In this document: in pieces, positions 2,919-10,892 of the stretch
Position numbering within the stretch: the stretch's first letter is position 1
Layout: every line of letters starts with the position of its first letter
Assembly: GCA_051294375.1 (NCBI GenBank)
Contig: JBJCIZ010001016.1
Coordinates: 1-10,892 of the forward strand
Reading direction: 5' to 3'
DNA from: Paraspadella gotoi
Lineage: Eukaryota; Animalia; Chaetognatha
Length of the DNA: 10,892 bases
Made by a program: the position numbers and the translations under genes
The notes under the pieces: model-generated
Databases searched by the model: none
What the model was told of the DNA's origin: nothing
What the model saw: only the letters and a program-made list of their open reading frames with translations

Positions 2919-3506
2919 TAGATCCGCCCTATTGTTAACGGTCAACAAAGCCTGGTGACGGCGATTCAAAAGAAGAGAAGAGTCCAGACCGTTCGTACAG
3001 TCGTACAAGCTCTCAGTGATCGCTGAGTTTACGACAAACGTGCAATTATTTAAAGAAGTAAGGCCAACGTATGTGGCCGACGCCTCATTCGCCGGCCAAA
3101 CTCCAACGTCAAATTCGAATCTTAGAGTCGAAGTGCAGGCCACAAGCCGACGGCGACATTCGCTCTCAAACCCGTTATCCCATCTCCAGACCATCTGACA
3201 CCGCTCAACACGTTTTTCGTCAGGCAAAGCAGGCATTCATCCTCCATTACAGCACCATATGAAGGACCTTACCGTGTAGTGAATCGGCAATGGAGCTTAA
3301 CGTCACCATCAAATCCAAGTAATAGGCCGCGAAATGCTAAACATCGCCCCAGTCAAACGCAGCGTGGGTTTTCAACGAGACGTTGGGAAGGTCGGTCAGG
3401 GACATCATCAGCGAACGCCCCAGCAGGCCGCCAGCCCGGCCCTACGAACGAGGACGCCGGCAAGAAGAACAACTCGGACAACTCGTCAAATATTCAACGC
3501 ACAGGG
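2919..3506 (+). mobile_element. Ty3/Gypsy pol fragment, 5'-truncated copy (end of RNase H plus integrase C-terminal GPY/F region), frameshifted
   Basis: IAEFTT...VADA (ORF 3016), DTAQHVF (ORF 3071) and CCATATGAAGGACCTTAC = PYEGPY near 3255-3272. Homologous to the later copies. Confidence 0.85.
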
Positions 3507-4010
3507 TCGCCCAACCGGTTCCTCCTCCTCCTCCTTCCCCCTCTCACTCCCGCCTATGCCGCAGTCATAACACCCCACCTTCCCCTCCAACCCAACCCAT
3601 CGTCCCGCTTTACGGTCTTTTCCTACTCCCTCTCTCTCAGACCTCCATGCGAGACGAGTCAAATCCCCGAAGGCGAGAAGAGAGAATCACAACAACAACA
3701 ACAACGAAAAAGGAAAAAACAACTCACACGAATCGAAGATCCCTCAAACCAACGCCAGAGAACTTTTTCCTAGCAGGATGCCAATCACTAATCGACCCAC
3801 TTACTCTGTCGTGCTCAAGGAGATGCTTCGACGTCAAAAAAATACAGAATGACAACAACAACAACGACGAAGAAGAAAAACAAAAATAAAAACCTCCCCT
3901 GTCGACCTAATTGACAGTCGGGCAATCTCTTCGTCCGCGGCATCCTCTGGTCTTGCCTCCCGTCTTCATCGCTCGACTGTCCAATATTACATCGTTACCC
4001 ATAGTGTTTT

Positions 4011-4040
4011 TTGGAAATTTTGGAATTTTGGAAATTTTTT
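4011..4040 (+). repeat. Short ~9-mer tandem (TTGGAAATT)x3, present in each full unit
   Basis: TTGGAAATTTTGGAATTTTGGAAATTTTTT, recurring near 6421-6448 and 8755-8784. Confidence 0.8.
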
Positions 4041-4167
4041 CAATTTTAGATTTTGTGAAATTTTATTTTTATATTTCTAATATTTTTATTAATCAACATA
4101 CTTTCAAGTCACACAAGATGGACGAACAACCATTTTTGTTTATTATATATTACAAAGGGGGCATGAA

Positions 4168-4288
4168 GGGCCAACTTGAGCGAATCAGATCCTTTTATAG
4201 AAATAATTCATATGATTGGATTCGAACCATTCGAAGCTCAGTTCCTGAGTGGACTCGAGCTACAGCTCTGGGCCACTCAGACCGACGC
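4168..4288 (-). ncRNA. Candidate Pol III-type structured RNA, paralogue L (unit 1; noisy copy)
   Basis: Minus-strand consensus GGGCCG TCTGAGTGGC CCA GAGC-TGTA-GCTC GA GTCACTCAGA ACTTGAGT TCGAT GGTTCGAATCC...GATTC GCTCAAGT GGCCT. It has an A-box-like TGGCCCAG, a perfect B-box and stems covarying with paralogue R. Confidence 0.55.
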
Positions 4289-4391
4289 TGATTTCTCAGC
4301 GATTTTGTTATTTCATCTTAAAGCTTTAAATCTAGATTTAGAAATACTTTTGTTTTTCTTAAAACAGTTGCTCTGTTCACCAAAAGATGTC

Positions 4392-4411
4392 TTGGCGCCA
4401 TTTGGCGCCAA
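4392..4411. promoter_or_regulatory. Double TTGGCGCCA(A) dyad motif in the spacer between the divergent RNA candidates (also 6802-6821 and 9118-9136)
   Basis: TTGGCGCCATTTGGCGCCAA is a GC-rich island in an AT-rich spacer and resembles the E2F-type site TTTGGCGC. Confidence 0.35.
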
Positions 4412-4466
4412 ACTTCGTTTCTTTGTTTTTAAAGTTTTAATAAGGTTTAGATTTGATGAGGAATCA

Positions 4467-4588
4467 GGGCTGTCTGGATGGCTCTGATTGTAACTCAAGG
4501 TCGTCCAGTAGCTCGAGTTCGATGGTTTTCGAATCCCATAAGTGGAAGGAATTATTTCTGTAATAGATTGATTCACTCGAAGCGGCCC
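4467..4588 (+). ncRNA. Candidate Pol III-type structured RNA, paralogue R (unit 1)
   Basis: Consensus GGGCTG TCTGGATGGC TCT GAGT-TGTA-ACTC AAG GTCGTCCAGA GCTCGAGT TCGAT GGTTCGAATCC...GATTC ACTCGAGC GGCCC. It forms a three-way junction and contains a B-box. Confidence 0.58.
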
Positions 4589-4882
4589 CATGCCCCACCT
4601 GTATAATCCATGTTGTCGCTTGTTTGAGAAAGTTTCTCCGACGTTGGTTTTGAGAATCTTGTCATCGTTGGCTCATTCCATCTTTTTTCGTTGGTTATTG
4701 TTGTTCTTTTTGCTCTTTTCTTCTTTTTGTTCGGAACCCGTCTCGCGTGAAGCTTGCAGAGAAGAGGAGGAGGGAGCAAAAGCCGTAAAGGGGGGATGGG
4801 TGGATGGGGGAGAAGGGTGGGGAACTTTTTGGGGCTGGGTCAGTGGGAGGAGGGGAGGAGAAGAAAGAGAGGAGCGGGGCGA

Positions 4883-5933
4883 TAAGAACGGAGTGAGGCA
4901 CGGCTTCAGAAACGCGTTAAAAGCTACAGAACTGCCTGACCAACGACGATAAAGGAACTGCAGAGATTTCTGGGGATTGATGAAATTACTACAGGGCGGT
5001 TTCATCCCCAGAGTCAACAACAGATTCGCGTCCCATTGTAACGAGGCCCTCAGTGGCAAAGCGAAAATCTGGACCTGGACAAACGACTGTGAACAAGCGT
5101 TTCAGATCAAAGCGGCAATTACTTATCATCCTGGAAACCGAAGCAAAACTTTGCATCAAAAACGGATGCATCAAGATTTGGCCATTGGAGTGCTGGAGCA
5201 AGAGGCCAAAGGAATGGGAAGCCTCTGGCCTTTTTCTTGCCAAGCTCGCCAAAAAACAACGATTATGGCCTCCGTTCGATAACGAACTTTTCGGCGCCTT
5301 CAAAGCTGTCCCCACTCCAAAGCACAGGGTCAAAGGTAGATCATTTACCTTGTAATACGGATCACCAAGCCTGGTGACGGCGATTCAAAAGAAAGAAGAG
5401 TCTCAGAAAACCGTTCGTGCAGTCGTATCAGCTCTCAGATGATCGCTGAGTTTACACAGACGTGCATTATTTAAAGAGTAAGGCCAACGTTTGTGGCCGA
5501 CGCCTCTCGCGCCAAAGCTCAACGTCAAACTTCGAATCTTATGAGTCGAAGTGGCAGCCACAAACCGACGGCGACATTCGCTAGCAAAAACCCGTTATCC
5601 ATCTCAGGAACCAATCTCGACACCGCTCAACACGTTTTTCATCAGGCGAGCAAGAGCATTTCATCCTCCACTTACAGCAACCATACTGAAGACCTTAACC
5701 CGTGGTAGTGAAATAGCAACGGCCTTAACGTCAGCATCAAAATCCCCAAGTAAAAGGCGCGAAATGCTAAACATCGCCCGCGTCAAACCCAGCGGGGTTT
5801 CAACGAGAACGTTGGAGGTCGATCAGGGACATCCTCAGCGACGCCGCAGGCAGGCCGCCAGCCCCGGCCTGACGAACGAGGACGCCGGCAGAAACAACTC
5901 GGACAACTCGTTCAAAATTATTCAACGCACAGG
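4883..5933 (+). mobile_element. Internally deleted Ty3/Gypsy pol fragment (RT thumb/connection, RNase H, GPY/F tail), frameshifted
   Basis: Pieces FIPRVN, WTNDCEQAFQIKAA, DLAIGVLEQ, PFDNELFGAFKAV, TNLDTAQHVF and LNIARVKP occur in alternating frames. Confidence 0.92.
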
Positions 5934-6324
5934 TCGGCCCGAACCGGTTTCCTGCCTCCTTCCTTCCTCCTTCCCCCCTCTCAACTCCCACCACACCCAC
6001 CTTCCCCCAACCAACCCCGTCCCCTTAGCCGTCTTTTCCTCCCTCTGCGTCTCAGCCTCCATGCGAGCGAGTCAATCCCAAAGCGATGAAGAGAGAATCA
6101 CAACAACAACAAACAACGAAAGGAAAAAAACAAAACTCAACGATCGAAAGATCCTCAAACGCAACGCCAAGAGAACTTTTCTAGCAAGGATGCCAATCAA
6201 CTAATCGACCCAACTTACTCTTCGTGCTCAAGGAGATGCCTTCGACGTCAAAAAATACAGAATGACAACAACAACAACGACGAAGAAGAAAACAAAAATA
6301 AAAAACCCGCCCCTGTCGACCTAA

Positions 6325-6392
6325 TTGACAGTCGGAGCATCTCGTCCCGCATCCTCGGTCTTCCTCCCGTCTTCCTCGGCTCCGACTGTCAA
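6325..6392. other. 12-14 bp perfect stem with a ~40-nt pyrimidine-rich loop (also 3913-3981 and 8663-8725)
   Basis: TTGACAGTCGGAGC (6325-6338) pairs with GCTCCGACTGTCAA (6379-6392). In unit 3, GACAGTCGGAGC (8663-8674) pairs with GCTCCGACTGTC (8714-8725). Confidence 0.8.
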
Positions 6393-6573
6393 ATATTAAA
6401 ACATCGTTACCATAGTGTTTTTTGAAATTTTGGAAATTTTGGAAATTTGTCAATTTTAGATTTTGTGAAAATTTTTATTTTTTATATTTCTATATTTTAT
6501 TATCAACATACTTTCAGTCCAACAAGATGGCGAAACATTTTTAGTTTATTATATATTACAACAGGGGGGCATG

Positions 6574-6699
6574 AGGCCACTTGAGCGAATCAGATTCTTT
6601 TATAGAAATAATTCAATCCATGGTTGGAATCGATACCATCGAACATCAAGTTCTGAGTGACTCGAGCCTTAACCAGCTCTGGGCGCACTCAGACGGCCC
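6574..6699 (-). ncRNA. Candidate structured RNA, paralogue L (unit 2)
   Basis: Tandem copy of 4168-4288. Retains the TCTGAGTG/CACTCAGA and ACTTGA/TCAAGT stems. Confidence 0.55.
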
Positions 6700-6873
6700 T
6701 GATTTTCTAGCGATTTTGTTTTTCATTTAAAGCTTTAAATCTCGATTTAGAAAATCTTTTGTTTTTCTTAAACAAGTTGCTCTGTTCACCAAAAGATGTC
6801 TTTGGCGCCATTTGGCGCCAACTTCGTTTTCTTTGTTTTTAAAGTTTTAATAGGTTTAGATTTATGAGAATCA

Positions 6874-6992
6874 GGGCCTGTCTGGATGGCTCTGAGTTGT
6901 AACTCAAGGTCGTCAGAGCTGAGTTCGATGGTTCGAATCCCAATAAGTGGAGAATTATTTTCTGTATAGATTTGATTCACTCGAGCGGCGCC
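6874..6992 (+). ncRNA. Candidate structured RNA, paralogue R (unit 2)
   Basis: Tandem copy of 4467-4588 with an intact GGTTCGAATCCC. Confidence 0.58.
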
Positions 6993-7288
6993 GTCATGCC
7001 CCCCTGTATAATCCATGTTGTGTCGGCTTGTTTGAGGAAAGTTTCCTCCGACGTTGGTTTTTGAGAATCTTCCATCGTTGGCTCATTCCCCCATCTTTTT
7101 CGTTGTTATGTTGTTCTTTTTTGCTCTTTCTTCTTTTGTTCCGGACCCGTCTCGCGTGGAAACTGCAGAAAGAAGGAAGGAGGGACAAAAAAGCGTAAAG
7201 GGGGGATGTGGGTGGGGGAGAGGGTGGGGATTGGGGCTGGGGTCCAGTGAGGGAGGAGGAGGAGGAGAAAAAGAGAAGGAGCGGGCGA

Positions 7289-8298
7289 TAAGAAGGAGTG
7301 AGGCCGCTTCCAGAACGCGTTAAAAGCTACACGGAAACTGCTCGACCCACGACGATAAAGGAACTGCAGAGATTCTGGGATGAAAATTAATACAGCGTTT
7401 CATCCAGAGTCAACCACAGATTCGCTCCCTTGTACGAGGCCCTCAGTGGCAAGCCGAAAAATCTGGACTGGACAAACGACTGTGAACAAGCGTTTCAGAT
7501 CCAAGCGGCATATTACTTCATCATTCCTGGAACCGGAGCAAAACTTTGCATCAAAACGGATGCTCAGATTTGGCCATTGAGCAGTGCTGGGCAAAGAGGC
7601 CAAAAGGATGGGAGCCTCTGGCCTTTTTCTTGGCCAAGCTCGCCAAAAAACAACGCTTATGGCCTCCGTTCGATAACGAACTTTTCGGCGCCTTCAAAGC
7701 TGTCCGCCACTCCAAGCACAGGGTGAAGGTAGATCATTTACCTTGTATACGGATCACCAAAGCCTGGTGAACGGATTCAAAGAAAGAAGAGTCTCAGACC
7801 GTTCGTCAGTCGTATCAGCTCTCAGTGATCGCTGAGTTTACGACAGACGTGCATTATTTAAAGAGTAAGGCCAACGTTGTGGCCGACGCCCTCTCCGGCC
7901 AAACTCAACGTCAAATTCGAATCTTAAGAGTCGAAGTGGCAGGCCACAAGCCGACGGCGACATTCGCTCATCAAAAAACCCGTTATCCATCTCCCGACCA
8001 ATCTCGACACCTCTCAACACGTTTCGTCAGGCGAGCAGGCATTCTCCTCACTTACAGCACATATGAAGGACCTTACCGTGTAGTGAATCGCAACGGCCTA
8101 ACGTCACCATCAAAATCCCCAAGTAAAGGCGCGAAATGCTAAACATCGCCCGCGTCAAACCAGCGTGGGTTCCAACGAGACGTTGAGGTCGATCAGGGAC
8201 ATCCTCAGCGACGCCCAGCAGGCCCCAGCCCGGCCACGAACGAGGACGCCGGCAGAAACAACTCGGAACAACTCGTTCAAATATTCAACGCAACAGGG
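7289..8298 (+). mobile_element. Internally deleted Ty3/Gypsy pol fragment, frameshifted
   Basis: LDWTNDCEQAFQ, IKTDA, WEPLAFF.AKL, ELFGAFKAVRH, IAEFTTDVHYLKSKANVVADALS and FVRR...YEGPYRVVNR in ORFs 7430, 7546 and 7825. Confidence 0.93.
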
Positions 8299-8901
8299 TC
8301 GCCCGAACCGGTTTCCTCCTCCTCCTCCTTCCCCCTCTCACTCCCAACCACCCCACTTCCCCAACCCACCCTCGTCCCCTTTATGTCTTTTCCTCCCTCT
8401 CTCCTCAGCCCCTGGAGAGGAGTCAATCCCAGAAGCGAGAGAGAGAATCACAAACAACAACAACAACGAAAAGGAAAAACAAATCACGATCGAAGATCTC
8501 AAAACCAACGCCAAGAGAAACTTTTCGAGCAGGATGCCATCACTAATCGACCCACTTACTCTGTCGTGCTCAAGGAGATGCTTCGACGTCAAAAAATACA
8601 GAATGACAACAACAACAACGACGAGAAGAAAACAAAAATAAAACCCCCCTGTCGACCTTAATGACAGTCGGAGCATCTTCGTCCCGGCATCCTCGGTCTT
8701 CCTCCGTCTTCTCGCTCCGACTGTCCAATATTACATCGTTACCCATAGTGTTTTTTGGAAATTTTGGAAATTTTGGAAATTTTTCAATTTAGATTTGTGA
8801 AATTTATTTTTATATTTCTATATTTATTATCAACATATCTTTCAGTCACACAAGATGGACGACAACATTTTGTTTATTATATATTAACAACAGGGGGGCA
8901 T

Positions 8902-9016
8902 GAGCCACTTGAGCGAATCAGTCTTTTATGAAATAATTCATCCATGGTTGGATTCGAACCATCGAACTCAAGTTATAGTGACTCGAGCTACAGCTCTGGG
9001 CCACTCAGACGGCCCC
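8902..9016 (-). ncRNA. Candidate structured RNA, paralogue L (unit 3)
   Basis: B-box on the minus strand at 8950-8960. The GAGC-TGTA-GCTC hairpin is intact. Confidence 0.58.
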
Positions 9017-9191
9017 TGATTTTTCTCAGCGATTTTGTTTTCATTTAAAAGCTTTAAATTCTCGATTTAGAAATCTTTTTTTTTCTTAAAACAGTTGCTC
9101 TGTTCACCAAAGATGTCTTGGCGCCATTGGCGCCAACTTCGTTTTCTTTGTTTTTAAGGTTTTAAATAGGTTTAGATTTGATGAGGAATCA

Positions 9192-9305
9192 GGGCTGTCT
9201 GGATGGCTCTGAGTTGTAACTCAGGTCGTCCAGAGCTCGAGTTCGATGGTTCGAATCCCATAAGTGAGAATTATTCTGTAATAGATTTGATTCACTCGGC
9301 GGCCC
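9192..9305 (+). ncRNA. Candidate structured RNA, paralogue R (unit 3)
   Basis: A-box-like TGGCTCTGAG at 9204 and B-box GGTTCGAATCC at 9248, a 44-nt spacing as in tRNA genes. The 10-bp stem TCTGGATGGC/GTCGTCCAGA is intact. Confidence 0.6.
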
Positions 9306-9500
9306 ATGCTCCCCTGTTATAATCCATGTTGTCGCTTGTTTTGAGAAGTTTCCGAAGTTGGTTTTGAGAATCTTGTCATCGTTGGCTCATTCCCATCTTT
9401 TTCCGTTGTTATGTTGTTCTTTTTGCTCTTTTCTTCTTTGTTCGGACCCGTCTCGAGTGGAAGCTGCAGAGAAAAGGAAGGAGGGAGCAAAAAGCGTAAA

Positions 9501-9581
9501 GGGGGGATGGTGGGTGGGGGAGAGGGTGGGACTTGGGCTGGGTCAGTGAGGGAGGAGGAGGAGGAGAAGAAAGAGAAGGAG
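9501..9581 (+). other. G-run cluster (G-quadruplex potential) followed by a 34-nt polypurine tract (also ~4790-4874 and ~7200-7281)
   Basis: GGGGGGATGGTGGGTGGGGGAGAGGGTGGGACTTGGGCTGGG has seven runs of 3 or more G. Bases 9548-9581 are all purines. Confidence 0.7.
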
Positions 9582-9588
9582 CGGGCGA

Positions 9589-10607
9589 TAAAGAACGGAG
9601 TGAGGCCGCTTCCAGAACGCGTTAAAATGCTACAGGAAAATGCTCGACCCACGACGATAAAGGAACTGCAGAGATTTCTGGGATGATAAATTACTACAGC
9701 ATTTCATCCCCAGAGTCAACCACAGATTCGCCTCCCTTGTACGAGGCCCTCAGTGGCAAGCCGAAAAATCTGGACTGGACAAACGACTGTGAACAAGCGT
9801 TTCAGATCCAAGCGGCATTAAAAAAACTTCATCATCCTGGAACCGGAGCAAAAATTTGCATCAAACGGATGCCTCAGATTTGGCCATTGGAGCAGTGCTG
9901 GGCAAAAGAGGCCCAAAAGGATGGGAGCCTCTGCCTTTTCTTGCCAGCTCGCCAAAAAACAACGCTTATGGCCTCCGTCGATAACGAACTTTTCGGCGCC
10001 TTTCAAAGCTGTCCGCCACTCAAGCACAGGGTCGAAGGTAGATCATTTACCTTGTAATACGATCACAAAGCCTGGTGACGGCGTTCAAAAGAAAGAAGAG
10101 TCTCAGCGTTCGTCAGTCGTATCAGCTCTCAGTGATCGCTGAGTTTACGACAGACGTGCATTATTTAAAGAGTAAGGCCAACGTTGTGGCCGACGCCCTC
10201 TCGCGGCCAAACTCAACGTCAAATTCGAATCTTAGAGTCGAAGTGGCAGGCCACAAGCCGACGGCGACATTCGCTCATCAAAACCCGTTATCCATCTCCC
10301 GACCAATCTCGACACCGCTCAACACGTTTTCGTCAGGCGAGCAGGCATTCATCCTCCACTTACAGCACCATATGAAGGACCTTACCGTGTAGTGATCGCA
10401 ACGGCCCTTAACGTCACCAATCAAAATCCCAAGTAAAGGCGCGAATGCTAAACATCGCCCGCGTCAAACCAGCGTGGTTTCCAACGAGACGTTGGAGGTC
10501 GATCAGGGACATCCTCAGCGACGCCCAGCAGGCGCCAGCCCGTCCTACGAACGAGGACGCCGCAGAAACAAACTCGGACAACTCGTTCAAATATTCAACG
10601 CACAGGG
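9589..10607 (+). mobile_element. Internally deleted Ty3/Gypsy pol fragment (cleanest copy)
   Basis: GVRPLPERV..PTTIKELQRFLG/MINYY (RT thumb). RNase H acidic motifs: TDAS (D codon 9868), NELF (9986), DHK (10061) and VADALSR (10192). HVFVRR...PYEGPY follows (GPY at 10377-10385). No YXDD, no HHCC zinc finger, no DDE integrase core. Confidence 0.95.
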
Positions 10608-10892
10608 TCGCCCGAACCGGTTCCTCCTCCTCCTCCTCCTTTCCCTCTCACTCCAAACCACCCCACCTTCCCCCAACCCACCCTCGTCCCCTTTACGTCT
10701 TTTTTTCTCTCTCTCCTCTCCTCAGACCTCCATGCGAGACGAGTCAATCCCAGAGCGAGAAGAGAGAATCACAAACAACAACAACAACGAAAAAGGAAAA
10801 AACAAACTCACGATCGAAAGATCCTCAAAACCAACGCAGAGAACTTTCTAGCAGGATGCCAATCACTAATCGACCCACTTACTCTGTCGTGC

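Follow-up and report, generated by a model that had tools for sequence, protein, structure and literature searches.

Pol III promoters in LTR retroelements have been described for short non-coding elements, and the autonomous partners of such elements must use Pol II according to Kojima 2024 (PMC10886601). Like the window, by which we mean the whole stretch of 10,892 nt of DNA that was analysed, the TRIMp3 elements Helenus, Cassandra and Ajax are LTR retroelements with a Pol III promoter that originated in a small-RNA gene, with conserved boxes and no working tRNA, and they also occur in tandem arrays (PMC10886601). The idea of a captured promoter is common to Helenus and Cassandra (PMC10886601, PMC10946416). 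The TRIMp3 elements are short and non-coding and carry the promoter inside direct LTRs, in sense orientation in the sequences examined there (PMC10886601), whereas units of the window type are antisense, lie in the 3′ region of pol-coding elements and possess their own terminator. BLV and the foamy viruses are reverse-transcribing elements that make a short folded RNA from internal A and B boxes and a T terminator, apart from the Pol II genome (PMC3993851). They differ from the window in being vertebrate retroviruses with demonstrated miRNA products, and the foamy-virus units are located in the LTR (PMC3993851), whereas the window unit is a prediction from sequence.

Chironomus Cp1 (PMC4210444) and snaR (PMC3045588) are non-tRNA Pol III units in repeated DNA, and snaR, like the window unit, spread by DNA-level duplication (PMC3045588); the likeness is one of description only, and neither is reported within a gypsy element in these two accounts. 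tRNA-derived SINEs and SINE-derived satellites resemble the window in having a tRNA-type head in a tandem repeat (PMC10702118). Unlike SINEs, the two window paralogues share their upstream flank with its AT element, their head has no A-rich or simple-repeat end and no target duplication as read from the sequence, and their tail is gypsy-related; for these reasons a tRNA-derived SINE was rejected. Adenovirus VA RNA has a type-2 internal promoter, a non-tRNA multi-stem fold with paired ends and two paralogues, each of which has a counterpart, in part predicted, in the window. In contrast to VA RNA, the window paralogues are divergent rather than in tandem and lack a DNA-virus context; the context is a gypsy relic, no Rfam VA model matched, and this class was likewise rejected. 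The preliminary description had proposed type-2 Pol III transcripts of a VA-RNA- or SINE-like kind. The promoter architecture it described is supported by spacing, chance controls and box-restricted conservation in related gypsy elements (see below), whereas both labels fail.

Self-alignment of the window delineated a tandem array (2938..10892, unstranded) of approximately 3.4 copies of a ~2.35-kb unit, which runs off the window end. The pol relic in each unit is followed by arm L on the minus strand, by a spacer that contains the TGGCGCCA palindrome twice, and then by arm R on the plus strand. The arms are diverged inverted paralogues placed head to head and are related from an AT element to a purine-rich tail, with ~330 nt extra in arm L relative to arm R. 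The heads of arm R are located at 4460..4604 (R1), 6868..7010 (R2) and 9189..9316 (R3) on the plus strand, and those of arm L at 4150..4294 (L1), 6558..6706 (L2) and 8891..9019 (L3) on the minus strand. The R3 tail (9345..9590, plus) is the inverted paralogue of the L3 tail (8295..8532, minus). We lean towards the interpretation that Pol III transcribes each arm, or did so in the element it came from, into a short folded RNA that is antisense to pol. The arms would thus probably represent a small-RNA unit of Pol III type that was encoded by a retrotransposon and later duplicated and amplified.

The array is partly present in nine sequencing runs of one organism from three studies, and four of these runs were compared. 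The head-to-tail joint (10056->7779) was found in contigs of runs X5 and X9, and a 775-nt contig bridges L, the spacer and R. None of the runs is recorded as RNA; X9, which also covers the flank, is only guessed to be RNA and was left out as expression evidence. Low-depth gypsy relatives are also present in the run contigs. Most of the array contigs listed for X5 have a depth of ~500–1400, compared with 9–45 for flank contigs. It is a fair inference that the array comprises tens of copies or more, the depth itself not being a copy number. The window copies are noisy (86–89% alike, with differences that are mostly gaps), and many of the window indels have no support in the run contigs; flank contigs, unlike the array, are identical to the window across 285 nt. 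The array begins inside the RNase H part at ~2938. Between 900 and 2937 the flank is pieced together from dispersed repeats and includes an (AG)n tract, and the region 745–1100 holds a MITE-like inverted repeat of 49 nt (82% complementary, arms 258 nt apart).

The identity of the relic was established by protein homology. A first protein search gave no hit among its six candidates, and six pol relatives with 58–78% identity were found among 35 candidates. By tblastn with the proteins P0004 and P0006, the C-terminus of RT and RNase H map to 7295..7896 on the plus strand (approximately residues 375–595 of the relative), with a frame that is broken in the window. The C-terminal part of integrase (7891..8270, plus; from approximately residue 1005 of the relative onward) is joined directly to RNase H. 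A further pol relic at 9591..10470 (plus) belongs to the next unit. The matched full pol proteins contain Pfam RT, RNase H and integrase domains, and the window pieces follow the Ty3/gypsy order of RT, RNase H and integrase, although the RT palm and the integrase core are absent from the relic (deletion mapped by tblastn). Pfam RT_RNaseH scored below its cut-off on the 7295..7896 relic. The motifs that characterise RNase H in the relatives can be made out in the various frames of the copies, at 7295–7896 and elsewhere in the array. Pol homology extends to about 8270, and the remainder of the L tail beyond this point, which on the plus strand follows the last pol homology, is likely a Pro-rich pol tail. 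A motif profile of the pol C-terminus of the relatives (24 of 143 proteins) found no match in the window, including the L tail.

The R3 copy illustrates the putative promoter. Its B box, GGTTCGAATCC (9248..9258, plus), is a perfect match to the consensus and is preceded by a second GTTCGA at 9241, in agreement with the earlier account. The A-box-like motif TGGCTCTGAG (9204..9213, plus) matches 6/9 consensus positions (7/9 in an upstream register) and lies 44 nt before the B box. In L3, the A-box-like motif TGGCCCAGAG (9003–8994) and the B box (8960–8950) are on the minus strand; the motifs of both arms are at the places given previously. Among the copies, A boxes match 6–7 of the nine positions with two possible registers, and the A-to-B spacing is 43–50 nt. 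The B box is perfect in R2, R3, L1 and L3 and altered in R1 and L2, within a noisy array. The fold had been placed as starting shortly before the A box, and the measured distance from start to A box is 13–14 nt. An AT element, which may be TATA-like, begins 35–41 nt before the start. It is located at 9152..9165 (plus) in R3, where a G replaces the A of the other copies and the run contigs, and at 9045..9058 (minus) in L3; the shared elements reported upstream of both starts were also recovered at 4428–4440 (R) and 4318–4330 (L). An identical 20-mer, described as common to the paralogues, is exact in three of the six copies (6921, 9239, and 8969 on the minus strand), whereas indels or substitutions are present in the other three. 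The 20-mer also varies within the species: an L form in X5 contigs has two changes in it.

These arrangements are seldom produced by chance. Of 5000 simulated units, 89 contained a B box and one contained an A and B pair at tRNA spacing, with an A pattern that had been relaxed so as to accept both arms; 1–2% of column shuffles reached an identical run of 20 columns. Searches with models of known RNAs did not place the heads in a described class. ARAGORN detected no tRNA gene, and the Rfam tRNA model aligned to 8939–9010 with 16.3 bits against a cut-off of 29, on which grounds a tRNA gene was rejected; this alignment to L3 is in the same register as the boxes of the preliminary description. Relaxed ARAGORN settings gave 34–226 predictions, which are noise, and Rfam gave six weak matches across the window, none at its cut-off. 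The heads bear some resemblance to tRNA-Leu, but in a Leu-biased panel of 50 tRNAs Leu, Ile and Asn scored alike, so that Leu is only one candidate among several for the parent isotype. The 20-mer found one match in viral contigs, a bacterial-type tRNA-Tyr, and the head pattern found none in metagenomes.

Two features go beyond the earlier account: a TTATT(T) motif, and the probable position of the units as antisense cassettes in the 3′ region of a Ty3/gypsy element. TTATT(T) lies 11–15 nt past the B box in all six window copies, at +80–89, followed downstream by T4/T5 runs. R3 has TTATT (9271..9275, plus), where the other five copies have TTATTT (8936–8931, minus, in L3). Human Pol III is partly terminated by interrupted T5 motifs that end in T3, of which T2AT3 is one (PMC3141230). 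By extension from the human enzyme, TTATT(T) is likely a leaky first stop near +85. The predicted read-through terminators of R3 are a T4 (9362–9365) and a T5 (9398–9402) on the plus strand (9362..9402), and an extra T4 at 9339 is absent from R1 and R2. In L3, the first T4/T5 cluster (8629..8643, minus) is at about +375 to +390. The T4 at 4648–4651, which had been regarded as the first stop at ~180 nt, is indeed present; a first stop near +85 is likelier than one at +180, because TTATT(T) occupies the place homologous to the T4–5 run of the relatives.

An integrase alignment identified 11 related loci out of 180 candidate stretches, and searches of viral and prokaryote collections found none. 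In six of the 11 loci (L054, L055 and L061–L064), a complete antisense unit with A box, B box and T4–5 run is located just after or at the pol stop. L060 carries a degenerate unit cut by the contig end, and the contigs of L056 and L059 end too early to include the unit position. L057 and L058 are long enough, and the unit was not found in them; their pol protein is as close to the window as that of the unit-bearing loci (37 vs 37–41 of 68). At the 3′ end of L058, pol runs directly into the polypurine tract without a 3′ UTR, and TAACCC-type repeats close the contig. Since the unit-bearing loci all come under a single assembly name, they represent one lineage and one observation. The A-to-B distance is 42 nt and the B-to-T distance 15 nt in 6/6 of them, and the distance from an integrase motif to the B box is 696–822 nt in seven loci; in the window it could be measured for two copies, with values of 809 and 858 nt.

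The invariant columns of the six units are concentrated in an upstream motif (13/15), the A box (6/11), the B box (9/11) and the T run (4/5), with 13/119 in the rest, where the boxes were marked after the alignment was viewed. The upstream motif, a candidate promoter element of 15 nt that lies 53–54 nt before the A box in these loci, is absent from the window, and the upstream motifs differ. Conservation limited to the boxes, the upstream motif and the terminator is what a functional Pol III unit of ~90 nt would be expected to show. It would also suit TFIIIC-bound boundary elements, for which factor binding matters and the RNA does not, since the relatives conserve only these parts; tRNA-gene barriers and a centromeric Cp1 element are cited in PMC4210444. 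We consider boundary elements rather unlikely, because the constant 15-nt distance to a terminator speaks for transcription and because the fold is conserved between the window arms (see below).

In direct comparison, the window heads were not linked to the relatives' units better than to ordinary tRNAs. Profiles of the relatives' unit scored 6–7 bits on the window heads compared with up to 11 for ordinary tRNAs, a covariance model of that unit scored 13 bits on L3 (E 0.19, not significant), and the reciprocal model from the window heads found none of the relatives' units. Apart from a hairpin that resembles a T arm, the units of the relatives have no fold in common, with no compensatory pairs. 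A common origin of the window heads and these units would rest on position, orientation and spacing, and the two groups may instead have been captured separately. The 3′ UTR of the relatives also contains a second folded element on the sense strand (L054:2768-2862, L064:1460-1556 and L062:1878-1934, all plus), which ends in T5–6 in two complete copies, changes on both sides in 3/15 predicted pairs, has no Rfam match and forms a divergent pair with the antisense unit.

In L054 and L063, a tRNA-like sequence lies upstream of the polypurine tract; an LTR was not identifiable in the window. The tract (G7-A/TGT) lies ~900 nt or more beyond the unit in these two loci, which places the unit in the 3′ UTR rather than in the LTR. 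In the window, the head-to-head junction with its two TGGCGCCA palindromes (9119..9135, unstranded) resembles a tRNA-Lys primer-binding site, and also an E2F site. The junction string also opens Helenus-5_PiIm-I, which is grouped under tRNA-Lys-CTT (PMC10886601). Together with the G6 tracts that border both heads, this match to the Helenus primer site might suggest that L and R are Helenus-like LTRs lying end to end, with G6 as the polypurine tract and TGGCGCCAA as the primer site. Such an arrangement is very improbable, given the distance from the unit to the true tract in L054 and L063, the inverted rather than direct arms, and the sense orientation of the tRNA-like part in the Helenus sequences examined in that source. 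Membership of Helenus (TRIMp3) itself was rejected, because a 2.35-kb unit with a pol relic and inverted arms is not a short non-coding element with two direct LTRs, PBS and PPT.

RNAalifold predicted a fold of ~130–135 nt with 36 pairs for the six heads. In this structure 94% of the cells are paired, compared with 24–42% for slid partners, although the structure was derived from the same sequences, which favours it. Four pairs are compensatory between L and R; the first hairpin contains three of them, and the fourth belongs to the stem around the B box. This number was reached by 1/400 column shuffles (energy z -5.9; z -3.7 for R3, which shares the structure), and the covariation is based on only two lineages. 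The paralogous tail has no compensatory pairs and no conserved fold. The B box pairs with the upstream GTTCGA to form a hairpin, and this accounts for the second copy of that motif. In the X5 L form, mapped by eye, each half of the hairpin has one change, and both the pairing and the B-box consensus are kept; a double change of this type would arise about once in four cases by CpG decay alone. The B-box change is also present in X9 and in a third of the X1 depth.

The opposite, pol-sense strand folds about equally well (z -5.4, five compensatory pairs), and the strand can therefore not be told from folding. The 3′-region position suits cis-acting signals for export, packaging or dimerisation, and the pol-sense values would fit a fold that serves as such a signal in the genomic RNA, the B box being a leftover. 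Arguing against this, the Pol III strand comes out better in 5/6 copies when each is folded singly, the AT element, the start and the T runs are each oriented the Pol III way, and the boxes are kept without the fold in the relatives; we regard a cis-acting signal as distinctly unlikely.

The arms could alternatively be dead passengers, in which a tRNA or SINE head was captured long ago and carried passively into the satellite, with the compensatory pairs arising from template switching at DNA hairpins. A deleted and rearranged array, a fold that works on either strand, and an L-to-R identity only modestly higher in the head (101/142) than in the tail (80/136) are all compatible with decay. Passive carriage would not readily account for a perfect B box and spacing kept in both arms after ~30% divergence, for the G-U pairs retained at three positions, or for the box-restricted conservation in six diverged relatives, and we judge it unlikely. 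The fixed terminator of the relatives and the compensatory pairs of the window suggest that the RNA, and not factor binding alone, was selected.

Based on these observations, the favoured interpretation of the arms as antisense Pol III units can be put as a sequence of steps. The arms would be diverged head-to-head copies of what is likely a Ty3/gypsy 3′ region, each with an antisense tRNA-type promoter. TFIIIC would bind to the A box and the B box, TFIIIB would be positioned with help from the AT element, and transcription would start at the A of TCAGGG. A part of the transcripts would stop at TTATTT, giving ~85 nt, which is the length of the unit in the relatives. The rest would read through the ~135-nt fold to the T4/T5 runs, at +185 to +220 in R and at about +375 to +390 in L. 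In this way the element would produce, besides its Pol II genomic RNA, a separate small RNA, for which BLV and foamy viruses offer a precedent. A deleted, fused derivative would then have been amplified as a satellite. One guess, made by analogy, is that the RNA serves as a decoy or as a guide when small RNAs silence the element.

A wider proposal is that a pol-coding Ty3/gypsy lineage encodes a VA-like antisense 3′ UTR Pol III RNA that blunts or steers host small-RNA silencing, and that, in this animal, two diverged versions of it were joined head to head and multiplied into a many-copy tandem gene array now in use by the host. In this full form the proposal is unlikely. A title search, with most subscription papers outside its range, found none describing an antisense Pol III unit in pol-coding gypsy elements. 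If such a unit, with its own terminator, is conserved inside pol-coding gypsy elements, these elements would gain an independent small-RNA gene, a retrotransposon parallel to the RNAs of BLV and the foamy viruses. It would also offer a way for new arrays of Pol III genes to come into being.
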